From contig JBGAFV010000001.1 in NCBI GenBank assembly GCA_044227095.1, positions 3,236,296-3,268,295 of the forward strand: a DNA stretch of 32,000 nt, read 5' to 3'. The position numbers and the translations under genes are program-made. Origin of the DNA: Chitinophagaceae bacterium (GTDB taxonomy: Bacteria > Bacteroidota > Bacteroidia > Chitinophagales > Chitinophagaceae). Numbering within the stretch: position 1 is the first letter of the stretch; each line of letters begins with the position of its first letter. The notes under the pieces are model-generated. The model was not told the origin of the DNA. It made no database searches and was given only the letters and a program-made list of their open reading frames with translations. This document shows positions 4,945 to 32,000 of this stretch, piece after piece.

Positions 4945-7161
4945 ATGAAAAAATATTTTCAGCAGGTTTTAATGTGTATATGTATTTGTGCAGCATGCAT
5001 GGTGCCTGTTGCTTTAAATGCACAGGATTTTATTGATGAAGATTTTCTTGATAATATTGAAGCAAACGCAAAATTTATGTGGGCCGAACCTGCGGCTGCG
5101 TTTGCAGTTACAACTACCCCGGCAAAATGGAATGATCAATCAGCCGTGGTAATAGGATATAAGCGCAGCATCATGTTCGATAAGAAAAACAGCGGAGGTT
5201 TTTTTAGCGCAAGACAGAAAAATGTGTTCTTCTTTGAAAAAGTAAGGTTTAAAATACAACTGCACGATAAAAATGCTGTTCAGGCTTTTTCTGAAATTTA
5301 TTTCCGTTACAGTGCAAAAGAAGATGGGTTTACTGCAAGAATTATAAAACCGGGAGGGGAAACAAATGCAGTTGATCTGAAAGAAGCAATAGAACTGGAA
5401 CGTGCAAGCGATATCCCTGAATTTTTTAAAAGTTTTTTTGATCAGACTTCAGGCGCACAATCTCGTTATTACAAAGTAGCAATACCCAATCTTGAACCGG
5501 GCGATATTCTTGAATACGCATCTTATACAAAAAGCAAGCTGGATGTACGTGGTTCAGGGTTTGTTGAGTTTGATCCGCAATATGAAATTTGCAGCAAGGG
5601 TTATCCGCTTATGTATAATGAGATTGATATTGAAACAGACGAAAAATCTTTTTTCAAATCATTGTCATTAAACGGTGCGCCAGAGTTTAAAAAAGAAAAT
5701 GGCGATGATAAGGATTTCTATCGTTATGTTTTTACAGACAGGGACAGGGATGTAGAAAAAGATGTAAACTTTGTAAGTAAGCTGTTGGTTTATCCCGTTG
5801 TAAAATTCCAGGTAATTTATGCCAATAGCGAAAACGTAAAAGGTTTGCTAATAGGCGGCAAGGGGGAATTGAAAAATGGGTTTAATAAGGAAGAACTTGC
5901 TTTACGTGCTTATGAAACTTATGCTGATGCAGGCGCCAATTGGTCAGATCCTAATGGGGCATATGCGCTTTATTATTCCTGCTCAGAAGAATTGAAAAAG
6001 CTTGGCGCAAAAGACTGGCAGGAACAGGAATTTATAAAACGGGCCTATTACATGATTAGGGATAAAGTTGTTTTTCGCAGCACTTATTTGCCTGACAGGT
6101 GGTTTGCCTTCGCATTCTCATTATTGCTTACACGGCACGATATAAAAAATGAACTGGTTATAAGCAGTACTAATACGGTTGGTAAATTAAAAGACATTTT
6201 ATTTGATGATGAGATAAGGTATGCGGTTAAAGTGAATGATAAGCTTTATTTCAATTGTACGGATCATTCATTGCCGGGAGAGTTGATACAATCCTTATTG
6301 GGCAATGATGCATATATTGTAAGCGAGCCTGATAAAAAGAAACGTACACAAACGATAACTGATTTTAAACTGCCAAATGCTACAGCAGCAGATAATACGG
6401 TTAACTATACCATTAATTCCTCTTTGAGCGCAGATTATAATAATGTAGTAGTTGCAAGAACCAGCAATTATACCGGGTTGCTAAAAACCAGTTATATAAG
6501 CAATGCAATGCGGCTTACAACTTATATGGTTGATGATTATAAAAGTTATGGTGGCAACCCGCCAACTGAAAAAATGAAGGCACGGGAGCAGGAAGAATAT
6601 GAGAAATCTGTAAAAGCCATCAAAGAAGAATTTAAAAAAGCAAAACCTGATTTTGTGAAAGGGGAACTTGAAAAAGAGTTTCATCAAAAAGTAAAATTTA
6701 CCGATTTTAAAATTATCAGCGATGGGCGTACTGATAAAAAGAAAGATCTTATTTACACCGAAGAATTTGAACTGCCCGGACAGGTACGAAAAGCCGGGAA
6801 AAAATACCTGGTAAACCTAACTGGGTTAATGGGCCCTCAATTGCAGGTAAAGAAAGATGAACGGGAAAGGAAATACGATATTAATGTAGGTTATCCCAGA
6901 ACTATAAGCTGGACAATTAATTTTAAAGTTCCGGATGGCTATACAGCTTCTGGCATTACAGAATTAAATACCAATGTAGAAAATGAAACGGGCAAGTATA
7001 GTTGTGAAGCAAGTCAGGATGCAAACGGCGTTGTGTTGAAAATTACAAAAGTGTACAAGAATGCAAACATTTCAAAAGACAAATGGAAAGACATGCTTGC
7101 TTTTATAGATGCAGCTTACAATAATTCTTACAAATACATTTTATTAAAACCAAAAGGGTAA
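4945..7161 (+). CDS. Secreted DUF3857/DUF3858-like protein, partner of the upstream transglutaminase-like protein
   Basis: 738-aa ORF starting 8 nt after the upstream gene. Signal peptide is ...CMVPVALNA-QD. Size and architecture resemble the neighbour, but no catalytic Cys is seen at the aligned position (PDRWFAFAFSLLLT). Confidence 0.65.
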   Translation: MKKYFQQVLMCICICAACMVPVALNAQDFIDEDFLDNIEANAKFMWAEPAAAFAVTTTPAKWNDQSAVVIGYKRSIMFDKKNSGGFFSARQKNVFFFEKVRFKIQLHDKNAVQAFSEIYFRYSAKEDGFTARIIKPGGETNAVDLKEAIELERASDIPEFFKSFFDQTSGAQSRYYKVAIPNLEPGDILEYASYTKSKLDVRGSGFVEFDPQYEICSKGYPLMYNEIDIETDEKSFFKSLSLNGAPEFKKENGDDKDFYRYVFTDRDRDVEKDVNFVSKLLVYPVVKFQVIYANSENVKGLLIGGKGELKNGFNKEELALRAYETYADAGANWSDPNGAYALYYSCSEELKKLGAKDWQEQEFIKRAYYMIRDKVVFRSTYLPDRWFAFAFSLLLTRHDIKNELVISSTNTVGKLKDILFDDEIRYAVKVNDKLYFNCTDHSLPGELIQSLLGNDAYIVSEPDKKKRTQTITDFKLPNATAADNTVNYTINSSLSADYNNVVVARTSNYTGLLKTSYISNAMRLTTYMVDDYKSYGGNPPTEKMKAREQEEYEKSVKAIKEEFKKAKPDFVKGELEKEFHQKVKFTDFKIISDGRTDKKKDLIYTEEFELPGQVRKAGKKYLVNLTGLMGPQLQVKKDERERKYDINVGYPRTISWTINFKVPDGYTASGITELNTNVENETGKYSCEASQDANGVVLKITKVYKNANISKDKWKDMLAFIDAAYNNSYKYILLKPKG

Positions 7162-7209
7162 GGCGGGGAATTGCTGATTTTGACATTTTTTAGTTTATGC
7201 AACTAAAAT

Positions 7210-7244
7210 AAAAACGTCACTGAAATTATCTCAGTGACGTTTTT
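7210..7244. terminator. Bidirectional intrinsic terminator between convergent genes
   Basis: AAAAACGTCACTGA-aattatc-TCAGTGACGTTTTT: a 14-bp perfect stem flanked by an A-run and a T-run, so it can work on both strands. Confidence 0.7.
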
Positions 7245-7277
7245 ATTTTGAATGATTTTTTAAATCAATTCTATGGC

Positions 7278-10142
7278 TTAACTCATATAACTTTCTACAG
7301 GCTCGCAGGTGCAAATAAGATTTCTGTCGCCGTGTGTATTATTAATTCTTGCAACGCTTGGCCAGAATTTATTTTTTACAACATAGGCTAATGGAAAAGC
7401 AGCATCTTCTCTTGAGTAAGGATGGTTCCATTCTGTACTGCAAATGGTCCATTGCGTATGCGGGGCATTCTTTAAAACGTTGTTTGTTTTATCTGCCTTA
7501 CCGCTTTCAATAGCTTTTATTTCTTCGTATATGCTAATCATGGCATCACAAAAACGATCCAGCTCAGCTTTGTCTTCGCTTTCTGTTGGTTCAATCATTA
7601 TAGTGCCGGGAACCGGAAAACTCATTGTTGGTGCATGAAAGCCGTAATCAATTAAACGTTTGGCCACATCTTCTGCTTCAATGCCTGCGCTGGTTTTAAA
7701 CGGACGAAGGTCTACAATAAACTCGTGTGCGCAAGTACCACCTTTGCCAAGGTATAGGATTGGATAATATTTTTCCAGCCTTGCACGCATATAGTTTGCA
7801 TTAAGGATTGCATATTCTGTAGAACGCTTCATGCCTTCTGCGCCAAGCATTTTTATGTATGCATAACTAATAAGAAGGATAGAAGCAGAACCATAATTAG
7901 CTGCGGATACTGCACCTGTTTCATTAACTGATACATGGCCGGGCAGGTAAGGTTTTAATTTATCATTTACGCAAATAGGGCCCATGCCGGGGCCACCGCC
8001 GCCATGTGGTATTGCAAATGTTTTGTGCAGGTTAAGGTGACAAACATCTGCGCCAATCATACCGGGAGATGTAAGTCCAACCTGCGCATTCATATTAGCA
8101 CCGTCCATGTAAACCAATCCTCCGTTAGCATGAACTGTTTCGCAAATTTCAATAATGCTTTCTTCAAATACGCCGTGTGTAGAAGGATAAGTAACCATTA
8201 AAGAAGAAAGGCTGTCTTTATACTGAACAGCTTTTGCTTTAAGATCTGTTACATCAATGTGGCCTTCATCATCACTTTTTACAACTACTACTTTCATGCC
8301 TGCCATTACAGCACTTGCAGGATTGGTACCATGCGCAGAAATAGGAATAAGCACAACATTACGGTGTACATTTCCATTAGCAATATGGTAATTGCGGATA
8401 GCTAGCAAACCTGCATATTCTCCCTGCGCACCACTATTGGGTTGAAGGCTGCAGGCAGTAAAACCGGTTATCTTACATAAATAATCGCTTAGTTCATCTG
8501 TAATCTGTTTGTAACCCAGCGCCTGGTTTGCAGGCACAAATGGATGAAGTCCGCCAAACTCTGGCCAGCTTACAGGAATGAGTTCTGTAGCAGCATTTAA
8601 TTTCATGGTGCAACTGCCCAATGAAATCATAGAAGTATTAAGCGATAAATCTTTGTTTTCTAAAAATTTAAGGTAACGCATCATCTGGCTTTCGCTATGG
8701 TGCGTATTAAAAACGGCCTGCATTAAAAATGGAGTAGTTCTTTTTAATGTTGCAGGAATTGATGAATGCGCATCATCATTATTGAAACTGATAGCTGCAA
8801 TATGTTTGCCGCTGGCAGTTTCAAATACAGAAACTATTTGCAGCAAATCTTTTTGCATGGTAGTTTCATCAATGCTGATGCCAATATAGTTGTCATCAAA
8901 ATAACGGAAATTGATTTGATGCAATTCCGCTACTTCCTTAATTTTTGCTGTATCGGTACATTTTATTTTAAGTGTGTCAAAGTAACTGCTATTTATATTT
9001 TCATAGCCCAGCTCTTTCAATTCGGCTGCCAGTGTGTTTGCGAGCAAAGTAACTCTCTGAGCAATTTTTTTCAATCCTTCTGCGCCATGAAACACGGCGT
9101 ACATTGCCGCCATGTTGGCCAGCAAAGCCTGTGCTGTACAAATATTTGAAGTAGCTTTTTCTCTTTTTATATGCTGTTCTCTTGTTTGCAAGGCCATACG
9201 TAAAGCACGGTTGCCTTTTGCATCTATGCTTACGCCAATTAAGCGGCCGGGAATAGAACGTTTAAAATCATCTTTTGTAGAAAAGAAAGCTGCATGCGGG
9301 CCGCCATAACCCATTGGAACGCCAAAACGTTGTGCAGAACCTACTGCGGCATCTGCGCCTAATTCTCCAGGGGGAGTTAGCAATGTAAGCGCAAGAAGAT
9401 CTGTTGCCATTACCACGTATCCACCCGAGGTATGAATTTTATCAATGAATGAACGATAGTCTTCAACAGAACCATTGTCGTTTGGATATTGAAGCAATGC
9501 GCCGAAAAAAGTATTGTCTATTGCCGCAGTCTTATAATCGCCATAAACTATTTGTATGCCAATTGGTGTGGCCCTTGTAAGCAACACATCTTTTGTTTGC
9601 GGAAATGTTGCGTCGTCTACAAAAAATTTGGGTTGTTTTATTTCATCTGTTTTGTTTACATGATGAAAGAACATTGACATTGCTTCTGCTGCTGCTGTGC
9701 CTTCATCAAGCAAAGAAGCATTTGCTATTGGCAATGCAGTTAAATCTGTTACCAGTGTTTGATAATTGAGCAGGCTTTCAAGACGCCCTTGAGATATCTC
9801 TGCCTGGTAAGGTGTGTATTGTGTATACCAACCCGGATTTTCAAAAATATTGCGAAGTATAACACTAGGTGTAATGGTGCCATAGTAACCCTGACCGATA
9901 TAATTTTTAAAGACTTTGTTTTTTGCTGCTATTGTTTTCAGTTCCTGCAGGTATTCAAACTCACTTTGAGGTGTTGGCCTATCTAATGGTTTTTTAAGGC
10001 GTATAGAAGCAGGAATGGTTTTGCCAATCAGCTCTTCAATATCCTTTACACCTATAACGGGTAACATTTCGCGGGTAGCGGCTTCGTTTACTCCAATATG
10101 TCTTGCCTGAAATTCTGTGGATTGCTGCTCAAAAAGATTCAT
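7278..10142 (-). CDS. gcvP: Glycine dehydrogenase (aminomethyl-transferring/decarboxylating), glycine cleavage system P protein
   Basis: 954-aa single-chain P protein. N-terminus is FxxRHIG (FQARHIGVNE). Motifs YTPYQAEISQGRLE and NLHKTFAIPHGGGGPG (PLP-lysine region) are diagnostic. Confidence 0.97.
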   Translation of the reverse strand: MNLFEQQSTEFQARHIGVNEAATREMLPVIGVKDIEELIGKTIPASIRLKKPLDRPTPQSEFEYLQELKTIAAKNKVFKNYIGQGYYGTITPSVILRNIFENPGWYTQYTPYQAEISQGRLESLLNYQTLVTDLTALPIANASLLDEGTAAAEAMSMFFHHVNKTDEIKQPKFFVDDATFPQTKDVLLTRATPIGIQIVYGDYKTAAIDNTFFGALLQYPNDNGSVEDYRSFIDKIHTSGGYVVMATDLLALTLLTPPGELGADAAVGSAQRFGVPMGYGGPHAAFFSTKDDFKRSIPGRLIGVSIDAKGNRALRMALQTREQHIKREKATSNICTAQALLANMAAMYAVFHGAEGLKKIAQRVTLLANTLAAELKELGYENINSSYFDTLKIKCTDTAKIKEVAELHQINFRYFDDNYIGISIDETTMQKDLLQIVSVFETASGKHIAAISFNNDDAHSSIPATLKRTTPFLMQAVFNTHHSESQMMRYLKFLENKDLSLNTSMISLGSCTMKLNAATELIPVSWPEFGGLHPFVPANQALGYKQITDELSDYLCKITGFTACSLQPNSGAQGEYAGLLAIRNYHIANGNVHRNVVLIPISAHGTNPASAVMAGMKVVVVKSDDEGHIDVTDLKAKAVQYKDSLSSLMVTYPSTHGVFEESIIEICETVHANGGLVYMDGANMNAQVGLTSPGMIGADVCHLNLHKTFAIPHGGGGPGMGPICVNDKLKPYLPGHVSVNETGAVSAANYGSASILLISYAYIKMLGAEGMKRSTEYAILNANYMRARLEKYYPILYLGKGGTCAHEFIVDLRPFKTSAGIEAEDVAKRLIDYGFHAPTMSFPVPGTIMIEPTESEDKAELDRFCDAMISIYEEIKAIESGKADKTNNVLKNAPHTQWTICSTEWNHPYSREDAAFPLAYVVKNKFWPSVARINNTHGDRNLICTCEPVESYMS

Positions 10143-11543: not shown

Positions 11544-11582
11544 TGCGCTGCAAAAGTACTGAATCTGTTGGATCGGGTATAA

Positions 11583-12398
11583 TAGCACTGGGCTATACCC
11601 AGTGCTAAATATACAACGCTCTTTCAGAGCTTGTTTAATCTATCCTCGCATTGTAGCACTGGGCTATACCCAGTGCTTTGTATGCACCGCTCTTACAGAG
11701 CTGTATGGTATTTAAAAAATCAGACCCCTGAAATGGCGATGTATGCAAGCGAATGGCGCAGCCCTTCGCAAAAACAAATCTTTGGAAAACATTTCACATA
11801 ATAGCACTGGGCTATACCCAGTGCTTTGTATGCACCGCTCTTACAGAGCTATGTGGTATTTAAAAATGAAATCCCTGAAATGGCGATGTATGCAAGCGAG
11901 GGGCGGAGTCCATCGCAAAAACAAATCTTTGCAAAACATTTCACATAATAGCACTGGGCTATACCCAGTGCTTTGTATGCACCGCTCTTTCAGAGCTATG
12001 TGGTATTTAAAAAATCAAAGCCCTGAAAGGGCGATGTATGCAAGCGAATGGCGCAGCCCTTCGCAAAAACAAACCTTTGCAAAACATTTCACATAATAGC
12101 ACTGGGCTACACCTAGCGCTAAATATACACAGCTCTTTCAGAGCTATGTGGTATTTAAAAAATGAAATCCCTGAAATGGCGATGTATGCAAGCGAGGGGC
12201 GGAGTCCATCGCAAAAACAAATCTTTGCAAAACATTTCACATAATAGCACTGGGCTATACCCAGTGCTTTGTATACACCGCTCTTTCAGAGCTATGTGGT
12301 ATTTAAAAAATCAAAGCCCTGAAAGGGCGATGTATGCAAGCGAATGGCGCAACCCTTCGCAAAAACAAACCTCACACACAAAACAGTCTCACACATAA
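11583..12398 (+). repeat. Head-to-tail tandem array of a ~148-nt multi-hairpin repeat (one 71-nt partial unit plus five full units)
   Basis: Unit starts (TAGCACTGGG) are at 11583, 11654, 11802, 11949, 12097 and 12245, giving periods of 71, 148, 147, 148 and 148. Each full unit carries AGCACTGGG-ctata-CCCAGTGCT, GCTCT-ttc-AGAGC, a CCCTGAAAGGG-type motif and a 21-nt tail hairpin GCGAATGGCGCAGCCCTTCGC. Confidence 0.92.
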
Positions 12399-12482
12399 CA
12401 AAATAATTTATTTATCTCATCGCGATTATACTCTCAATCAAAGGAATATTTTTATGATGAAGTATAAATTAAACCTTGTCAA

Positions 12483-12935
12483 ATGGGACAATCGCTGGTA
12501 AAAAATTATGTGCACATAATTTTTAGCACAAAACACAGGGAGAGGTTTATTAAAGAAGAAATTGAAGATAAGCTATATGACTATATTGGCAGTGTTTGCG
12601 TTGCATTAGGTTGCCAACCGTTGAAAATTGGAGGGTATGATGATCATGTACATATCTTGTGTATGCTTTCAAAAACAATTACACTTTCCAGTTTATTGGA
12701 AAAAATAAAATCACACTCTTCTAAATGGTTTAAAACAATTGATAAAAGCCTGGAAAGATTCTATTGGCAGAATGGTTATGGTGCATTCTCTGTTAACCCC
12801 TCTCAGGTAAATACTGTTATCAAATATATTTCAAATCAAAGGGCATACCACAATCATATTTCTTTCCAGGATGAGTTCAGGACCTTTCTGAAAAAATACG
12901 AAGTAGAATATAATGAAATTTATGTGTGGGATTAA
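12483..12935 (+). CDS. IS200/IS605-family Y1 (HUH) transposase-like protein, RAYT-like
   Basis: 150 aa. HUH motif H55-V56-H57 (DDHVHIL, nt 12645..12653). WQNGYGAFSV is present, and the catalytic-Tyr helix is VIKYISNQRAYH (Y115). Size and motif order match Y1_Tnp (PF01797/COG1943). Confidence 0.85.
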   Translation: MGQSLVKNYVHIIFSTKHRERFIKEEIEDKLYDYIGSVCVALGCQPLKIGGYDDHVHILCMLSKTITLSSLLEKIKSHSSKWFKTIDKSLERFYWQNGYGAFSVNPSQVNTVIKYISNQRAYHNHISFQDEFRTFLKKYEVEYNEIYVWD

Positions 12936-12977
12936 TGACTCGTTGGTATATAAAACCATATGAAATGAATAATTTTG

Positions 12978-13030
12978 CCCAGCACTGCAAGGGCGGCTTA
13001 TATAAGCGAAGGGTGAAGCCCTTTGCAAAC
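12978..13030 (+). repeat. Partial, diverged copy of the 148-nt repeat (tail portion) downstream of the Y1 gene
   Basis: CCCAGCACTGCAAGGGCGGCTTATATAAGCGAAGGGTGAAGCCCTTTGCAAAC parallels the unit tail CTGAAAGGGCGATGTATGCAAGCGAATGGCGCAGCCCTTCGCAAAAAC. The tail hairpin is fully paired here. Confidence 0.6.
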
Positions 13031-13034
13031 TACA

Positions 13035-14463: not shown

Positions 14464-15711
14464 TTAGTATTCCAGTTTTCTTATAGCCGGAGCTTTAAAA
14501 GTAGTAATGATTACTACCAGCAAAGTCATGCAGCCTCCAAAAACAACAGACGGTACATTGCCCATCATTTTTGCAGTAACGCCGCTTTCAAATTGCCCCA
14601 GTTCATTACTGGAGTTGATGAACATAGAGTTTACACTCATTACCCGCCCACGCATATTGTCTGGTGTTTTTAATTGCATAATGGTGCCTCTTACCACAAC
14701 GCTTACGCCATCAAGCATTCCACTAATCATTAATGCTGTAAAAGAAAGCCAGAACACTTTTGATAAAGCGAAAGTGATAATGCAAATGCCAAACCCAGCT
14801 ACAGCAAATAGTAATTTTTTACCCTGCTGTTTCTGCATCGGGAACAGGGTTAATAAAATAACAATACAAATAGAGCCAATATCAGATGCGGCATTTAAAA
14901 AACCATAACCGCGTGGTCCTATTTTTAAAATATCCCTTGCAAAAACAGGCACTAAAGCTACAGCACCACCAAACAATACAGCAAAAAGATCAAGCGATAA
15001 AGCCCCCAATACTTCTTTAGTATTGAGTACAAAACGCAAACCGTCTTTTACACTGTCCCAAGTTTTTTTCTCACCTCTTTCATTTAACGGAGGTTTTGGT
15101 TTTAACTGAAACATGTTAATAAGCGCAATAAATATAAGCGATGCAATGCAGGTAAGCGTTCCGGTAGTACCAAGTCCGGCAATTAAAAAACCACCTGCAG
15201 CATGTCCGCAAACAGAAGCAGTTAACCATGTGCCCTGGTTCCAGGTGGTAGCATTTTGTAAATGTTTTTTAGGTACTATAGCAGCAAGAATAACATTAAA
15301 TGTAGGGCCAACAAAAGAGCGGATAATGCCTGTGCCGAAGATAGTAGCGTAAATACAAATGGCAATCCAGTGATTGGTTAAATGCTGTGCAGTAAACTTA
15401 GTAGAAATCGTAAGCAATATTAACGCAGCAAGTAAATACAATGCTACGCCGCGTAAGATCAGTTTTCTTTTTTCACTTAGATCTATAGTATGGCCTGCAT
15501 ACAGTGCCATAGAAAAAGCAGGTAAAAATTCTGCAAGGCCTATAAGTCCGATAGCAAGTGGTGCATTAGTAAGATTGTACATCCACCAGCCTACTAGGGT
15601 GCTCATCATGCGTAAGCCCATAATAAAAAGAAACCTGCCTGTAAGAAGTACCCTGAATTCTTTTTGTTTTACTGAAGCAAATGGATCGGCTGACTGCGTA
15701 AGACTAATCAT
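14464..15711 (-). CDS. MFS transporter (EntS/MFS_3-like)
   Basis: 415 aa with about 12 predicted TM helices. It has an N-terminal FRVLLTGRFLF-type motif and a central cytoplasmic loop. Confidence 0.85.
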   Translation of the reverse strand: MISLTQSADPFASVKQKEFRVLLTGRFLFIMGLRMMSTLVGWWMYNLTNAPLAIGLIGLAEFLPAFSMALYAGHTIDLSEKRKLILRGVALYLLAALILLTISTKFTAQHLTNHWIAICIYATIFGTGIIRSFVGPTFNVILAAIVPKKHLQNATTWNQGTWLTASVCGHAAGGFLIAGLGTTGTLTCIASLIFIALINMFQLKPKPPLNERGEKKTWDSVKDGLRFVLNTKEVLGALSLDLFAVLFGGAVALVPVFARDILKIGPRGYGFLNAASDIGSICIVILLTLFPMQKQQGKKLLFAVAGFGICIITFALSKVFWLSFTALMISGMLDGVSVVVRGTIMQLKTPDNMRGRVMSVNSMFINSSNELGQFESGVTAKMMGNVPSVVFGGCMTLLVVIITTFKAPAIRKLEY

Positions 15712-15823
15712 TTATTGGGTTGCCATTATATAAATAAAGATAGGAATTTTTGCAGGAGGAAATATTATTAAGAGATTAAAGGAAGTTTAATAAATCTGCG
15801 CATCTGCGGCTATAAGTTTCACG

Positions 15824-16346
15824 CAAAGAAAAGCTACAAGCTGCAAGCTATTAGCTGCAAGCCTTTAAACAAAACAGAACGCTGATTTTGATGATTCATA
15901 AGATAGCTATGATTTTATACTCTACTCTTCATCAAACCTCAAAAAAATCATCACAATCTGCGTTCAATTCTTCTTCATCGAAGATGCTCCCCGTGTATCG
16001 CCTCAAAAGCTATTGTCTCTGTGGTAAAGAAAGCTACAAGTTGTTAGCTATTAGCTACAAGCTTAGTAGTTTCGAAGAAACACTCCGTGTATTGCCTTAA
16101 TAGTTATCGTCGATAAGTGTTCTGTGTTTCTCTGAGTTATCTGTGTCTCTGTGGTAAAGAAAGCTACAAGTTGTTAACGATTAGCTGCAAGCCTTTAAAC
16201 AAAACAGAACGCTGACTTTTATGATTCATAAGATAGCTATGATTTTATACTCTACTCTTCATCAAACCTCATAAAAATCATCACAATCTGCGTTCAATTC
16301 TTCTGCATCGAAGATGCTTCCCGTGTCTCTGTGGTAAAGAAAGCTA
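15824..16346. repeat. Composite intergenic direct repeat (330-bp period, two ~180-bp copies plus three copies of a CTCTGTGGTAAAGAAAGCTAC module)
   Basis: TTAGCTGCAAGCCTTTAAACAAAACAGAACGCTGA... starts at 15851 and again at 16181, an exact 330-nt offset, and stays near-identical for about 150 nt. GTGGTAAAGAAAGCTAC(AAG) occurs at about 16021, 16151 and 16331, and the last copy abuts the dNK stop codon. Confidence 0.85.
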
Positions 16347-16976
16347 CGGCAATGAAAAATAATGCTGCCCATTCTCCAAATCCATATCAAGTGCATCTGT
16401 TATAACTTTCAAATGCTTTTCATTTCCCAGGAAATCTGCATTGGAGGCGTCTACAAAAATAGTTTTTATGTTGTGTTGCTTTATATAGTTGGTATACGTT
16501 TCCTGCAGGTTAAAAAGATATTCATCCGGAATAGATTGTTCGTAACTGCGGTTGCGTTTTTTTATATTCTGCTGCAATTTGTTTACAGGTGTGTGCAGGT
16601 AAATAAGCACATCGGGCTGAACCAATTGCTGATGAATAATATCAAACAAACGCTGGTATAAATGAAACTCCTGTTCTGGCAGGTTTACTTTTGCAAACAA
16701 CAGGCACTTGGTAAAAAGATAATCAGATACTGTTACACTCTGAAAAAGATCTTTTGTATGAATAAGTTCTTTTAACTGCTTATACCGTTCTGCCATAAAA
16801 AAAAGCTCCAGCGGAAAAGCAAATTGTTTTGGATTGCTGTAAAACTTTGGCAAAAACGGATTGTCTGTAAATTCTTCCAGCACCAGCCGTGCATTATAGT
16901 GCCTTGACAGTATATGCGCAAGAGTAGTTTTTCCGGCCCCTATATTTCCTTCAATAGTAATGAAGTGATGGTTCAT
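16344..16976 (-). CDS. Deoxynucleoside kinase
   Basis: 210 aa. P-loop is IEGNIGAGKTTLA, with ERS/DR-type downstream motifs. Size and layout match the dNK/dAK-dGK family. Confidence 0.85.
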   Translation of the reverse strand: MNHHFITIEGNIGAGKTTLAHILSRHYNARLVLEEFTDNPFLPKFYSNPKQFAFPLELFFMAERYKQLKELIHTKDLFQSVTVSDYLFTKCLLFAKVNLPEQEFHLYQRLFDIIHQQLVQPDVLIYLHTPVNKLQQNIKKRNRSYEQSIPDEYLFNLQETYTNYIKQHNIKTIFVDASNADFLGNEKHLKVITDALDMDLENGQHYFSLP

Positions 16977-21945: not shown

Positions 21946-23250
21946 TCAAACCTCAGCAATAACCTCAATGATTGTGGCGTAAGTTTTTTGAAGTTCTTCT
22001 TTTGTAATGCAATAAGGAGGCATAATATATACTGTATTGCCAAGTGGCCGTATATAAACACCTTTTTGTAAAGCATTTTTTGTAATGGTTGCAGCAATAT
22101 TATTGAGGTAGCCATCTTTCCCCTGTTCAATTTCAAATGCAATGATGGTGCCTAGCTGCCGGATGTTTTTTATAGGGAGATTGTTTTCTTTTTTAAGCTG
22201 ATTAACAAATGAAGTGTTTAATGCAACAATTTGCTGAATACTTTCAATGCAGGTTTCTTTCTCAATAAGATCCATGCTTGCAAGTGCGGCGGTGCATGCC
22301 AGTGGATTAGCAGTAAATGAATGGCCGTGAAAAAATGTTTTTAATTTGTCTTCGCTGGTAAAAGCATCCACAATATGTTGTGCAGCCGCAGTTACGCCAA
22401 GCGCCATGGTTCCTCCCGTAAGTCCTTTGGACAAACAAATAATATCTGGTTTCTCATTGCAATACCCGCATGCAAAAAGTTTTCCTGTTCTGCCAAAGCC
22501 AGTCATTACCTCGTCTGCAATACAAACTATGTTATGTTCTTTTACTTTGTGCAATAGTTCATCCATTAGCCCTGCTTCATACATTTTCATACCGCCTGCT
22601 CCTTGCAGCAGCGGTTCGTAAATAAATGCTGCAATTGAATTGCCTTCTTTTGCAATTAATGCTTTTAGAGTATCTATATTTTCTGTTGATGGGGTATCTA
22701 TAAAAATTACTTCAAACAATTTATCATGAAATGCGAGTGTAAAAACGCTTCTGTCGCTCATGCTCATAGCGCCAAATGTATCTCCATGATAGCTGTTATT
22801 GAAAGCAAGCACTTTTTTCCTTGAATTTTCTTTGCTCTTTGCTAGCGACTCATTGTTAGCAGCTTCTTTATTCCACCAATATTGCAAAGCCATTTTAATA
22901 GCCACTTCTGTTGCAGTAGAGCCATTATCAGAATAAAATATTTTTGAAAACTGCCCCGGTAGTTTTGGCAGAAGGCGTTCAGCAAGTTCAATAGCAGGTT
23001 TGTGTGTAAAGCCGGCAAAGATTACCTGTTCAAGAGTTTTGGCTTGTTCGTAAATTTTTTCAGCAATATATGGGTGCGCATGTCCGTGAATGGTTACCCA
23101 CCAACTGCTAATAGCATCAATATAATGGTTGCCGTGTTCATCAATTAAATAAACACCTTCTGCTTTAATAACAGGTATTGGATCGGTAGCATTTTTTAAT
23201 GAAGTAAAAGGGTGCCAGATAACGGCTTTATCGCGTTGCTGTAAGTTCAT
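21946..23250 (-). CDS. bioA: Adenosylmethionine-8-amino-7-oxononanoate aminotransferase
   Basis: MNLQQRDKAVIWHPFT..., SSWWVxxHGH, ADEVMTGFGRTGKLFA and the PLP-Lys region CLSKGLTGG are diagnostic of BioA. ATG 23250 is preferred over the TTG at 23256. Confidence 0.92.
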   Translation of the reverse strand: MNLQQRDKAVIWHPFTSLKNATDPIPVIKAEGVYLIDEHGNHYIDAISSWWVTIHGHAHPYIAEKIYEQAKTLEQVIFAGFTHKPAIELAERLLPKLPGQFSKIFYSDNGSTATEVAIKMALQYWWNKEAANNESLAKSKENSRKKVLAFNNSYHGDTFGAMSMSDRSVFTLAFHDKLFEVIFIDTPSTENIDTLKALIAKEGNSIAAFIYEPLLQGAGGMKMYEAGLMDELLHKVKEHNIVCIADEVMTGFGRTGKLFACGYCNEKPDIICLSKGLTGGTMALGVTAAAQHIVDAFTSEDKLKTFFHGHSFTANPLACTAALASMDLIEKETCIESIQQIVALNTSFVNQLKKENNLPIKNIRQLGTIIAFEIEQGKDGYLNNIAATITKNALQKGVYIRPLGNTVYIMPPYCITKEELQKTYATIIEVIAEV

Positions 23251-23279
23251 GCGCAAATGTAGTTTTTATAGTCTTTAGT

Positions 23280-23572
23280 TAGCACCGGGCCACACCAGTG
23301 CTTAATTATGCATCGCTCTTTCAGAGTTATGTGAAAAAAATGGCAGAGCCCTGAAAGGGCGATGTATAAAAGCGAATGGCGCAGATCTTCGCAAAAAAAT
23401 AAAACTTTCGCACAACACTTTGCATTGTAGCACTGGGCTATACCCAGTGCTGAACTATACACCGATCTTTCAGAGCTATACGGTAATAAAAAAATGGCAG
23501 AGCCCTGGAAGGGCGATGTATAAAAGCGAATGGTGCAGCCCTTCGCAAAAAAGAACCTTTCGCAAAATTGCC
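23280..23572 (+). repeat. Two tandem diverged copies of the same ~148-nt multi-hairpin repeat family
   Basis: Units start at 23280 (TAGCACCGGGCC..., degenerate head hairpin) and 23427 (GTAGCACTGGGCTATACCCAGTGCT), a period of 147. They share the CTCTTTCAGAG, GCCCTGAAAGGGCGATGTATAAAAGCGAATGG and CTTCGCAAAAAA blocks with the 11.6-kb array, in the same orientation. Confidence 0.88.
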
Positions 23573-23723
23573 GCTCAATGTTATACTGTACAAGTGTGCG
23601 ACGCAACGATATTGCCATGAAAACCAATGCTTGGCTCCCCCAAAAGACATTTAATAGCAGGTTGATAATAATCTTAAGCTGGTGCAACGCTTAAACTATA
23701 TTGTTTGTCAAAGTGCAGAACGG

Positions 23724-28535: not shown

Positions 28536-28747
28536 TTGCGCTTTAGCAATGCCACAATAATCAAACCCAAGTTCCGTTGCAGATTGTTTTATAAAGCCTG
28601 TATATTGATCTGTGTTCAGAAATGTTGTTTTTTATTGGCAATGTAAGGGAAATGCAATTATTTAGCGAATTTAAAGCGTAGTTCCTTACTTCGTATTTAC
28701 ATTATTTCGTTGTGAATTTAATTTTTAAAAGGCTATCTGAAACTTAC

Positions 28748-30775
28748 ATGAAATTAATTATAGTAACTCTGCTAATGTTTTACCTGTTTTGTTTTGCAGT
28801 CTCTGCTCAAAAAACACCCATAAATTTTGGAAATGTAGTAGCCGCAGATTTTGTACTGCCTGTCAATACCATTATAGACAGCAATGCCAGTGCAGTAATA
28901 ATTGCCGATGTTGGCAATACAAGTTTTAAGGGAAATGAAAAAGGATGGGTGAGTTATATTTTTAAACGTAAGAAGAGAATTAAAATTCTCAATAAAAAAG
29001 CATTTGATCTGGCTACCGTTAAAATAGATTTGTACGTGGATGGTGATTACAAAGAAAGAGTAGAAGATATTTCTGCAGTTACTTATAATCTTGAAAATGG
29101 AAATGTGGTTTCTTCAAAAATGGTAAAAAAAGATGTATTCACTGATAAAGTGGATAAAAACCATATTGAACAAAAATTTACGCTTCCGGCAGTAAAAGAA
29201 AACGCTATCATAGAATACAGCTATACTGTTTATTCTGATTTCTATAACCACCTACCCGGATGGACTTTTCAGAGTATTGATTATCCAACTTTGTGGAGTG
29301 AATATGAAACTACTATCCCCATTCTTGTAACTTATATTTTTGGCAAAAAAGGTATACACCCATTTTATATTGATAAAGGAAGTAATGGGGACGCAGATTA
29401 CCTTATAAAATCACGCAAGGTTGGTGGTACGGTAGACGATTTTACGAGCCTGAGTGCAAATACAATAAAACACCGTTGGGTAATGAAAGATGTTCCTTCT
29501 TTCTATGTTGAAAATTATTTGTATTCACCGGAGAATTATATTGATGAAATCAATTTTCAGCTCTCAAAAACTTATAATGGCAAAACTGAGGAGCCTGTGA
29601 ATAATTCATGGTCAAAAGTGACGGAAGATTTATTGAATGATAAGGATTTTGCAGCTTTTGTTAGTGCAGAAGACGATAACAGTTGGATTTACGAACATTT
29701 AGGGACAATGGTTAAAAAAGATACTGGCCAGCTACAGCAGGCAAAAGATATCTATTATTACCTGTCTGAAAATTTTACTTGTACAAGCCATCATGCTAAA
29801 TATATTGAAACAAACCTGCAGGATGTTTTCAAAAACAAGAAGGGAAGTGTTGCGGAATTGAACTTATTGCTTACAAATATTTTATTAAGGGATGGCATTA
29901 CTGCTGCGCCGGTATTACTTAGTACGAGGGAATATGGTTATAACTTTGAATCTTATCCTTTTTTGGATAAACTCGATTATGTTATCTGCAAAGCTACCAT
30001 TAATAATAAGGCCTATTATCTTGATGCCTCACATCTTTATCTTGCTTTTGGGCAATTGCCGATGAATTGCTACAATGGTCATGCTAGGGTAATCAGTAAA
30101 ACAGATTCTGGTTCCGTTTATTTTTTAGCAGATTCTATAAAAGACCGTCAAACAACGTTTGTGCATCTTATAAACGATACTACAGGTAAAATTGGGCTAA
30201 TTGGAACATATGAAAACTCAATGGGTAATATGAGCTCTTATGAACTGCGTAAATTGGTTAACAAAACAGGCGAAAAGCAATATTTTGATGCCTTTGCAGC
30301 CGCATCTTCAAATGAAATAGAATTAACGCAAACAGGAATTGACTCATTGAAAAAGATTGAGTATCCGTTAAAGGTGAAAGTGAAGTTCAAAATAAATGAA
30401 ATGGCGAAAAATGATGTTATTTACCTAAACCCTTTGCTTTGGAACGGATATAAAACCAATCCATTCAGTGATGCTGTACGCAAATACCCAATTGAAATGC
30501 CGGCCCCGGCAGATCAATCCTACGGTTTTATTATGGAGATTCCGCAGGGTTTTAAGGTTGATGAAGTGCCAAAATCTGTACGGATTTCATTCAATGATAA
30601 TCAGGGCTATTTTGAATATTTGGTACAGAAAAATGAAAATAGTGTCCAGGTAAGAAGTACAATGGTTTTAAGAAAAGCATATTTTGATGCAGAAGATTAT
30701 AACTCCCTAAGAGAATTTTTTGGAGTTATAGTAAAAAAGCAGGCCGAACAAATAGTATTTAAAAAAGTGCATTAA
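28748..30775 (+). CDS. Secreted DUF3857-like protein with a degenerate (catalytically inactive) transglutaminase-like core
   Basis: Signal is MKLIIVTLLMFYLFCFAVSA-QK. The core-equivalent segment KKGSVAELNLLLTNILLRDGITAAPV aligns to FGDCKGMANLLTEFLTMAGYDA of the 2936..4936 protein, with Cys replaced by Val and His by Tyr (DYVICKAT). The Asp is kept (YYLDAS). Confidence 0.7.
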   Translation: MKLIIVTLLMFYLFCFAVSAQKTPINFGNVVAADFVLPVNTIIDSNASAVIIADVGNTSFKGNEKGWVSYIFKRKKRIKILNKKAFDLATVKIDLYVDGDYKERVEDISAVTYNLENGNVVSSKMVKKDVFTDKVDKNHIEQKFTLPAVKENAIIEYSYTVYSDFYNHLPGWTFQSIDYPTLWSEYETTIPILVTYIFGKKGIHPFYIDKGSNGDADYLIKSRKVGGTVDDFTSLSANTIKHRWVMKDVPSFYVENYLYSPENYIDEINFQLSKTYNGKTEEPVNNSWSKVTEDLLNDKDFAAFVSAEDDNSWIYEHLGTMVKKDTGQLQQAKDIYYYLSENFTCTSHHAKYIETNLQDVFKNKKGSVAELNLLLTNILLRDGITAAPVLLSTREYGYNFESYPFLDKLDYVICKATINNKAYYLDASHLYLAFGQLPMNCYNGHARVISKTDSGSVYFLADSIKDRQTTFVHLINDTTGKIGLIGTYENSMGNMSSYELRKLVNKTGEKQYFDAFAAASSNEIELTQTGIDSLKKIEYPLKVKVKFKINEMAKNDVIYLNPLLWNGYKTNPFSDAVRKYPIEMPAPADQSYGFIMEIPQGFKVDEVPKSVRISFNDNQGYFEYLVQKNENSVQVRSTMVLRKAYFDAEDYNSLREFFGVIVKKQAEQIVFKKVH

Positions 30776-30959: not shown

Positions 30960-32000
30960 ATGAAACCCATCACCTCAGCGCTGCTGATGCTATTCTTTTT
31001 TTGTTCAACTGCCTTAGCTCAAAAAACACCTGTAGATTTTGGTAAAGTAAATGCCGGGGATTTTGTCCTGCCTGCCAATAATATCATAGACAAGAATGCT
31101 GGTGCCGTAATTATTGCAGACCTTGGCAATACCACTTTTAAAGGCGATAATGAAGGTTGGATTGGCACTATATTTAAAAGAAAAACAAGGATTAAAATTC
31201 TTGATAAAAAAGCCTTTGAGTTAGCTACTGTGCAGATACCGCTGTATGTTGATGGTGATATTAAGGAGAAGTTAGAAAATTTTACCGCTGTAACCTACAA
31301 TCTGGAGAATGGAAATGTAGTGGCAACAAAAATGGAAAAGAAGGATTTGTTTACAACTAAGGTCGATAAAAACCGTATTCTGCAAAAGTTTACACTTCCT
31401 GCCGTAAAAGAGAATTCTATCATAGAATACAGCTATACTGTTTTTTCTAATTTCGATTTTAATTTGCCAGAATGGGAGTTTCAGAATGCAGATTATCCAT
31501 GTCTTTGGAGCGAGTATGCCGTTACAATTCCCAATCTTGTAAACTATATTTTTCAAAAAAGCGGGGTGCATTCTTTTTATGTGGATAAGCCAGATGAAGG
31601 ACGTGAAACTTATCTCATCAAAAAAGTTAGTGAAAATGCAATTGCTACCGCAGGAAATGACATGCTTACTGTGGGCGTAAACACAGTTATGCACCGCTGG
31701 GTAATGAAAGACGTTCCTGCATTTTATGTAGAAAACTATCTTTTTTCTCCTAAGAACTATATAGATAAAATTGAGTTTCAATTATCGGCACGGACTTATG
31801 ATGGAGTAACATTTCATCCTGTAAAAAATACCTGGACTAAGGCAACCGACGATTTTCTTAAAACCCCATATTTTGCTTCGTTTATTACAAATACAGATGG
31901 TAACGAATGGCTCGATAAATACCTAAAGACAATTGTAAAACCAAATACAACCGAATTACAACAGGCGAAAGATATTTTTTATTATGTGTCTGATAATTTT
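30960..32000 (+). CDS. Tandem paralog of the 28748..30775 protein (5' partial, runs off the window end)
   Basis: It is not in the ORF track because no stop is reached. ATG 30960 opens a 347-codon frame to the window edge: MKPITSALLMLFFFCSTALA-QKTPVDFGKVNAGDFVLPANNIID.... This is collinear with, and highly similar to, the upstream gene (shared blocks FTLPAVKEN.IIEYSYTV, HRWVMKDVP.FYVENYL). Confidence 0.75.
   Translation, partial: MKPITSALLMLFFFCSTALAQKTPVDFGKVNAGDFVLPANNIIDKNAGAVIIADLGNTTFKGDNEGWIGTIFKRKTRIKILDKKAFELATVQIPLYVDGDIKEKLENFTAVTYNLENGNVVATKMEKKDLFTTKVDKNRILQKFTLPAVKENSIIEYSYTVFSNFDFNLPEWEFQNADYPCLWSEYAVTIPNLVNYIFQKSGVHSFYVDKPDEGRETYLIKKVSENAIATAGNDMLTVGVNTVMHRWVMKDVPAFYVENYLFSPKNYIDKIEFQLSARTYDGVTFHPVKNTWTKATDDFLKTPYFASFITNTDGNEWLDKYLKTIVKPNTTELQQAKDIFYYVSDNF

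Follow-up and report, generated by a model that had tools for sequence, protein, structure and literature searches.

A Y1 (HUH) gene of the IS200 type among arrays of a two-hairpin repeat module in a Chitinophagaceae bacterium: a candidate REPtron-like locus

Hairpin repeats that accompany a gene for a Y1 (HUH) enzyme are described in the REPtron of Escherichia coli, with its repetitive extragenic palindromes (REPs) and bacterial interspersed mosaic elements (BIMEs), and in Pseudomonas, with its REP doublets forming hairpins (REPINs) and REP-associated tyrosine transposases (RAYTs); in both, repeats belonging to the system, typically inverted, stand on either side of a single-copy HUH/Y1 gene. 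Another group of Y1 proteins, TnpA-Y1 subclass 1.2, was delimited by the signature DH[IV]H, WQ and Y...Q..HH and a length of about 148 amino acids (Quentin et al., 2018; PMC6006769). This subclass is close to IS200 (IS, insertion sequence), is found in Cyanobacteria and Bacteroidetes, was classed as 'REP: no' and as one that 'does not share IS properties', and presents a copy number of 1.7, its copies sharing only 36% identity; as neither repeats nor IS ends could be found, its function was left open in 2018. The third relevant entity is Acido-Lenti-1 (Rfam RF01687), a probable small RNA (sRNA) motif of Acidobacteria and Lentisphaerae with 89 members, many of them clustered or in tandem, which was rated probably RNA on covariation and whose occasional proximity to group II introns was the only remark made on it (Weinberg et al., 2010; PMC2864571). 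We have followed up a first-pass annotation of 32,000 nucleotides of a Chitinophagaceae bacterium (assembly GCA_044227095.1, contig JBGAFV010000001.1, positions 3,236,296 to 3,268,295 of the forward strand; this whole stretch is hereafter the window, and positions refer to it), in which a Y1 gene that appears by its motifs and length to match subclass 1.2 (12483..12935, + strand) lies within arrays of a 52-nt two-hairpin module.

Upstream of the gene, Tandem Repeats Finder reported one array (11654-12369; period 148, 4.8 copies, 90% matches, no indels, score 1187), ahead of which stood a 71-nt partial unit (11583-11653). The tandem 147/148-nt units described in the first-pass annotation, as well as the partial copy downstream of the gene (12981-13032), were thus recovered. 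The head hairpin of the unit, AGCACTGGG-CTATA-CCCAGTGCT, was exact in six of the eight copies. A single 148-nt unit folded better than its shuffled versions (z = -5.8 with DNA and -7.9 with RNA parameters, with none of 200 shuffles as good), and in the minimum-energy fold the head hairpin and the last hairpin flanked a single long one, formed by pairing of 'hairpin 2' with 'hairpin 3'. When the first half of the unit was reverse-complemented it displayed the layout of the second half, which indicated two modules placed head to head, one per strand: a 53-nt module on the - strand, a gap of 21 nt, a 52-nt module on the + strand and a gap of 22 nt. Two copies of one 52-nt two-hairpin module thus form the 148-nt unit as an inverted doublet of the REPIN/BIME type, in place of the atypical four-hairpin unit that had been contrasted with classical REPINs. 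The earlier statement that all copies lie on the coding strand holds for the 148-nt unit, which is repeated head to tail, but not for its functional parts, since each strand had one module among the matches of R1, the covariance model built for the module (52 positions, 12 pairs).

The module read, on the strand that begins with the small hairpin, A-GCCC(Y)GAA(R)GGGC, a 12-nt spacer with ATA, C-NNN-GGG-YRNAG-CCC-NNN-G and a run of A; modules of relatives had the same order: the small hairpin was GCCCTGAAAGGGC, a stretch of about 12 nt in which ATA was conserved came next, and the second hairpin, whose inner stem was GGG/CCC and whose loop read, for example, TGCAG, led into an A-rich tail. The small hairpin has 5 bp and is nearly invariant, whereas hairpin 2 has 7-8 bp, of which the inner GGG/CCC is nearly invariant and the three outer pairs vary and covary (GC 79/AU 49; AU 73/CG 40/UA 16; AU 56/UA 55). 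Among 136 distinct modules, in an alignment fitted to R1, pairing was kept in 92% of cells, in contrast with 80% in shuffles and 19-48% with the partner slid, and both partners had changed in 10 of the 12 pairs. Loop positions 6 and 10 of the small hairpin, the first and the last, also covaried (T..A 78%, C..G 20%), thus leaving a GAA triloop, and in hairpin 2 a T.G or C-G pair closed a G-N-A triloop. Such GNA triloops are a typical feature of highly stable mini-hairpins of single-stranded DNA (ssDNA), which makes them a lead, not a test. Among matches found without a structure term, G.T exceeded A.C in the small hairpin (69 vs. 13); the same occurred in hairpin 2 (196 vs. 36), mainly at the loop-closing pair (147 vs. 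2), with 49 vs. 34 for the seven stem pairs. This excess on one strand indicated that the strand reading the small hairpin first is the structured one. The structure of the module is under selection, as a conserved two-hairpin form with a preferred strand.

Two classes of hairpin 2, defined after the data had been seen, were distributed differently with respect to the gene, both 5' and 3' of it: class U (C-GAW-GGG) lay mostly on the coding strand of the Y1 gene and class D (C-AYA/ACT-GGG) mostly on the other (104/35 vs. 27/96; odds ratio 10.6, P = 6e-18). Counted by locus, 52 were concordant with this rule and 19 discordant (P = 1e-4). The window followed it, with eight U modules on the + strand and six D modules on the - strand, a cluster 10 kb away included. 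Two hairpin-2 classes are thus kept on opposite strands, and the 148-nt unit, made up of one D and one U module facing each other, can fold into one long REPIN-like hairpin. No conserved GT[AG]G tetranucleotide was found in the module consensus, where the positions after hairpin 2 are merely A-rich. GTAG stands at only two of the eight copies in the window (about 11652 and 23426), as had been noted before, the remaining ones reading ATAG; across the family, the TAG/GTAG foot that had been compared with the cleaved GTAG of E. coli REPs is not conserved.

The association of gene and module was analyzed in 85 non-redundant loci encoding relatives of the protein (80 metagenome and five genome loci; L-numbers below denote individual loci). 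R1 detected 422 modules in them, and a sequence-only profile placed a module within 300 nt of the open reading frame (ORF) in all 85, which bears out the pairing of the repeats with the adjacent Y1 gene that the first-pass annotation had put forward for checking. Module density was 1.97 per kb within 1.5 kb of the gene and 0.034 per kb further out, a 58-fold drop, and no module was found in 140 kb of unrelated control loci. Species-representative genomes searched by contig with GGGCGATGTATRMAAGCGA gave 18 single matches, approximately the number expected by chance, none of which held a unit. Many loci presented the same architecture, full(+) half(+) ATG..Y1..stop half(-) full(-), so that the ORF is bracketed by inverted AGCCCTGAAAGGGCGWAATA touching the start and stop codons; the half-modules stood at fixed distances from these codons in many unrelated genomes, and the inverted repeat with the small hairpin that abuts them was of 20 bp at many loci. 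Head-to-head doublets with gaps of 9-28 nt were common in other loci (26 of 38), and direct tandems and long arrays were frequent (L065, L074, L040, L072), with up to 18 modules per locus. Gene and module belong together across the family, and the array of the window is a large example of a common theme.

The Y1 gene encodes 150 amino acids, with the motifs D-H55-V-H57, W95-Q96 and Y115-ISNQ including Q119 in the translation, in agreement with the intact HUH motif (H55-V-H57) and tyrosine helix (YISNQ) claimed before. The protein matched Pfam Y1_Tnp (PF01797; E = 1.8e-24, 86.6 bits against a threshold of 23) and the NCBIfam equivalog model transpos_IS200 (66 bits, cut-off 55). Relatives formed at least 7,982 clusters at 90% identity (E <= 1e-20), with thousands of proteins of exactly 150 amino acids at 63-73% identity; those with a name came from Chitinophagaceae, Cytophagales, Sphingobacteriales, Ignavibacteria and others, mostly Bacteroidota and Ignavibacteria. 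The family alignment gave a consensus of DHVH, WQ and YIxNQxEHH over 150 amino acids with a conserved C-terminal tail, and H55/H57, Y115 and Q119 (Y...Q) were invariant in it. Signature, length (about 148-150 amino acids), C-terminal tail, low copy number and Bacteroidetes hosts are all shared with subclass 1.2; the differences are a module at every locus examined and, in the window protein, a Tyr that replaces the first His of the HH pair. At this position (residue 122, YISNQRAYH in the window) 90% or more of the family carry the first His of YIxNQxEHH; all family-invariant residues are kept in the window protein. The low copy number given for subclass 1.2 was supported (protein P0035, below), whereas its 'no REP' status was contradicted at every locus examined (85/85).

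The best solved relatives in a profile search against the PDB were TnpA of IS608 (2a6m, E = 5e-12) and TnpA of ISDra2, and no match to E. coli TnpA-REP was obtained in that search. With a predicted model (pLDDT 73), the first 29 Foldseek matches were all TnpA of IS608, ISDra2 or Sulfolobus (TM of only 0.42-0.50), TnpA-REP (4er8) ranking only 45th (E = 0.079). Sequence profile and fold ranking together indicated an enzyme of the IS200 type and not a class-2 RAYT. The latter was ruled out, as the motif is Y-ISN-Q and not Y...NP and there was no sequence match to TnpA-REP; the RAYT-type enzyme of the first-pass annotation, which had raised its phylogenetic placement as a question, was thus replaced by one with a Y...Q motif whose nearest relatives are the TnpA of IS608 and ISDra2.

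Copy number and position of the gene were those of a stable locus. One Y1 protein (P0035) occurred on 24 contigs from many samples, always in one genomic context, and the flanking modules of the gene family were inverted; neither near-identical multiple copies nor direct left-end and right-end hairpins, as in an IS, were found; the many identical IS200 copies considered in the earlier annotation did not appear for this protein. The gene lay between the same two genes, encoding a hydroxylase and a CxxCxxCC protein, in the window and in two congeners (L114 and L022). The Y1 gene thus behaves as a low-copy, locus-stable gene and not as a multicopy IS. Within L022 it was inverted (L022:1757-2209, compared with 12483-12935 in the window) between collinear flanking genes whose products are 79-93% identical, and the module classes kept their orientation to the neighbour genes and not to the Y1 gene, the reverse of the class-strand rule, which suggests that the gene segment was flipped between inverted modules.

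Turnover of the repeats was evident as well. The units of the window array are a mosaic of two first-half types and two second-half types, with a 296-nt block repeated at 99% identity; both the mosaic and this higher-order period point to unequal recombination between units and not to unit-by-unit insertion, and the suggestion that the CACATAA end recreates a target found no support. Judged by the sequences of its units, the array evidently grows and shrinks by such recombination. The loci L026 and L027, with identical Y1 proteins, differed by an indel of about 310 nt that ends in the small hairpin. A separate observation was made in the viral contig IMGVR_UViG_3300015615_001136, where L113:3313-3510 read full(+) half(+)..half(-) full(-) with 19 nt in place of the ORF; no Y1 gene was present within 4 kb of this cassette, which looks like a non-autonomous derivative and was the only locus with a module cassette among viral contigs. 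In L099:554-3019 a block of the Y1 gene and one module occurred three times in tandem with a period of 955 nt, the middle gene being frameshifted. At L023:10453-10580 the module 3' of Y1 was split by about 40 consecutive G, probably an artefact of sequencing or assembly; in L024 the region is intact. Arrays are dynamic.

No Rfam family matched the window at the gathering threshold. At relaxed settings, however, its modules aligned with the whole RF01687 model on the opposite strand, the best being the module at 12019..12070 (25.4 bits against a gathering score of 37), and Y1-flanking modules of three other loci (L084, L107 and L065) passed that score with 37.6-46.8 bits; the protein of L084 is 84% identical to one from Dawidia soli (Cytophagales). 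Module and motif share an 8-bp hairpin, a 12-nt linker with UAU, a 5-bp triloop hairpin and one conserved base after it, as well as a multicopy, often clustered or tandem occurrence in the seed genomes. They differ in that no transposase link is stated for RF01687, the window copies stay below threshold and the wobble asymmetry favours the opposite strand. In the literature searched no statement linking RF01687 to a Y1 gene was found, and the end of the Y1 gene (...W-D-stop, six spellings) had no match in the flanks printed by Weinberg et al., a comparison of little power.

Compared with the REPtron and REPIN-RAYT systems, the examined loci showed the same arrangement of a single-copy gene flanked by its repeats, with repeats also elsewhere in intergenic DNA, two repeat types that alternate in orientation (compare the Y and Z REPs of BIMEs) and inverted doublets that can fold into one long hairpin as REPINs do, the window unit folding with its modules paired. 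The differences were a class 1, IS200-like enzyme with Y...Q instead of class 2 with Y...NP; a 52-nt module with two hairpins instead of a single palindrome; the lack of a GT[AG]G foot; and copies concentrated around the gene. IS200, IS608 and ISDra2 resemble the locus in fold, catalytic residues and closest solved structures, in an enzyme that depends on hairpins near the ends, and in small size (about 700 bp between the neighbouring genes in L029). The locus departs from IS200/IS605 elements in having no tnpB and a gene that is not multicopy, in flanking modules that are inverted and not direct on one strand, and in arrays instead of one left and one right end. We consider it probable, with some reserve, that the locus is a REPtron/REPIN-like arrangement built on an IS200-type enzyme, with a single Y1 gene within arrays of its cognate 52-nt repeat. 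The REP/RAYT-like Y1 system of the first-pass annotation accordingly survives in its core, a Y1 gene with cognate repeats (85/85), but not in its foot, its target, its four-hairpin unit or a class-2 enzyme. By analogy with IS608 TnpA and E. coli TnpA-REP, a dimer of the Y1 protein would bind the hairpins when the DNA is single-stranded and would cut and rejoin beside them, seeding and moving modules and doublets; binding and cutting of hairpins as ssDNA would be the way in which the enzyme spreads the modules. A wider proposal, that subclass 1.2 enzymes are independent REP/RAYT-like enzymes derived from IS200 and not class-2 RAYTs, and that the Acido-Lenti-1 'sRNA' and its Bacteroidota relatives are their ssDNA substrates, a bipartite two-hairpin module in two classes on opposite strands, is advanced more tentatively, as a possibility to which we would not yet commit.

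Several observations weigh against a REPtron-like arrangement. The window gene lacks the inner half-modules of the canonical architecture, and its downstream module lies on the same strand. In 326 kb of far flanks, only 11 module matches stood over 1.5 kb away from a Y1 gene, and the modules may thus be far more local than classical REPs. The covariation counts lean towards the model to which the alignment was fitted, and the hairpin-2 classes are post hoc. Finally, among the window, L114 and L022, neighbour proteins are 79-93% identical and the Y1 proteins only 69-72%, a divergence that could fit either fast change at the approximately 46% unconstrained positions or replacement of the cassette.

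This divergence, together with the inversion in L022, is also what might be seen if the gene were an ordinary selfish IS of the IS200 type, with the modules as its ends and the arrays and ORF-less cassettes as debris or as elements resembling miniature inverted-repeat (MITE) or palindrome-associated (PATE) transposable elements, without domestication. The protein passes the NCBIfam IS200 equivalog model, the 20-bp inverted repeat abuts start and stop codons as IS ends would, L113 retains the same ends around its 19 nt, and L099 carries gene plus module three times in tandem. We nevertheless hold this explanation to be unlikely: P0035 keeps one context on its 24 contigs, three congeners share the same locus despite approximately 30% protein divergence, the copy number of 1.7 and the 36% identity between copies reported by Quentin et al. 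(PMC6006769) weigh against an IS, the ends are inverted and not direct as in IS200/IS605, and the window copy has lost the inner ends and keeps an intact ORF with its active-site residues. The gene might instead be a mobile cassette that targets, and does not spread, host repeats with a function of their own in protein binding or DNA architecture. Insertion of IS into REPs is known for other families, and a gene that is inverted and strongly diverged at one conserved locus would fit repeated capture at a repeat-rich hot spot. However, in many unrelated genomes the half-modules keep a fixed spacing to the start and stop codons, the class of hairpin 2 goes with the strand of the gene, and the 58-fold lower density beyond 1.5 kb makes the repeats look gene-dependent and not the reverse, so we give this alternative little credit.

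Just as improbable, in our judgement, is that the modules are structured RNAs, either the Acido-Lenti-1 sRNA or a cis-acting RNA, with the proximity of Y1 reflecting regulation or coincidence. Modules from L084, L107 and L065 do pass the Rfam model (37.6-46.8 bits; the window, at 25.4 bits, is sub-threshold), Weinberg et al. rated the motif as probably RNA because of its covariation (PMC2864571), and an excess of G.T over A.C with one structured strand fits RNA as well. Yet the favoured strand is opposite to the Rfam orientation, and modules alternate on both strands, occur in divergent promoter regions and form arrays of up to 18 per locus. Promoter-like sites showed no excess in the repeat region, and the terminator-like sites (four vs. 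1.7 expected) all had short stems of 5 bp, and two lay on the opposite strand. Intrinsic terminators and promoters were rejected as identities of the module, given that on the module strand hairpin 2 is followed by a run of A and not of T and that promoters were not in excess. Both loops are GNA triloops, as in stable ssDNA mini-hairpins, and an sRNA would hardly be expected to show so tight a link, in 85 of 85 loci, to an HUH enzyme, which acts on ssDNA.

The REPtron-like reading, if true, would mean that the REP/RAYT lifestyle arose at least twice within the Y1 superfamily, and it would explain an Rfam motif that has been without a function since 2010. The conserved, covarying module gives subclass 1.2 a concrete candidate substrate. 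No description of the gene-module association was found in the literature searched, most subscription journals being outside its coverage, and the link between subclass 1.2 and the module appears to be undescribed. The first-pass statement that the arrangement had not been described in Bacteroidota therefore holds for this link and not for its two sides, as both the subclass (PMC6006769) and a relative of the module (RF01687) are known. The table of manually found repeats in PMC6006769 has no entry for subclass 1.2 and does not contain the module motif; the class 3 Y1 repeats of Solibacter (Table S1 of the same paper) were considered and differ from the module in sequence. On the practical side, the exact sequence of the window protein was found on three short Logan contigs (L001-L003) that all start inside the repeat array, indicating that such arrays break short-read assemblies, a point of interest for assembly.

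R1 located 16 modules in the window with alternating strands, 12 at 11579-13032 and four at 23276-23552. The upstream array (11579..12366) comprises 11 modules in the strand order - - + - + - + - + - +. It opens with a class D module (GCACTGGG..CCCAGTGC) in the partial unit (11579..11631, - strand, 61.9 bits), and further - strand modules of class D follow at 11650..11702 (50.7 bits), 11798..11850 (51.9 bits), 11945..11997 (58.5 bits) and 12241..12293 (62.2 bits), with a variant (GCGCTAGG..CCCAGTGC) at 12093..12145 (54.6 bits). On the + strand, class U is found at 11724..11775 (CGAATGG..CCCTTCG, 56.7 bits), 12019..12070 (the best copy, 70.4 bits) and 12315..12366 (66.3 bits; the last before the gene, 116 nt 5' of the ATG), and a variant (CGAGGGG..TCCATCG) at 11871..11922 (57.2 bits), the module at 12167..12218 (57.2 bits) being a class U variant too. 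The half unit downstream of the gene is a class U module (CGAAGGG..CCCTTTG; 12981..13032, + strand, 45.1 bits) that begins 45 nt 3' of the stop codon and overlaps the annotated TTG start of the next ORF. The two-unit dispersed cluster, about 10 kb from the Y1 gene, contains a degenerate class D module (23276..23328, - strand, 24.7 bits, identified also from its sequence), a class U module (23347..23398, + strand, 53.0 bits), a class D module (23424..23477, - strand, 45.5 bits) and a second class U module (23501..23552, + strand, 66.5 bits). Two ORFs run through the arrays (11743-12096, + strand, 117 amino acids; 23247-23687, - strand, 146 amino acids) and are almost certainly not genes.

Around the Y1 gene lie gcvP and the genes for a fatty-acid hydroxylase, a CxxCxxCC protein and a metallo-beta-lactamase-fold protein; the absence of tnpB among them had been claimed before and was confirmed. 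No tRNA genes, as possible integration sites, were found in the window, whose GC skew is mostly positive on the + strand, a measure confounded by gene orientation. Downstream of gcvP, L022 has a module and the window an unrelated palindrome. The latter is a 22-bp inverted repeat (7205-7249, 95% complementary, AAAATAAAAACGTCACTGAAAT / ATCTCAGTGACGTTTTTATTTT) between the convergent genes 4945-7161 (+ strand) and gcvP (7278-10142, - strand), and it looks like a two-way terminator; the orthologous spacer of L022 is three times longer and holds the Y1-type module.

An unrelated intergenic repeat family occupies 15814-16347, between a major facilitator superfamily (MFS) gene (14464-15711, - strand) and a deoxynucleoside kinase gene (16344-16976, - strand). 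Its 170-nt copies (15830-15999 and 16160-16329) are 94% identical; GTGTCTCTGTGGTAAAGAAAGCTAC occurs three times (16013, 16143 and 16323) and AAGCTACAAGCTGC forms a short tandem at 15831. Two further pairs of segments about 2.2 kb apart (28748-29047 with 30960-31259, and 29451-29559 with 31672-31780) are 72-75% identical; the ORF 28712-30775 contains the first member of both pairs, and the segments are probably paralogous coding sequence.

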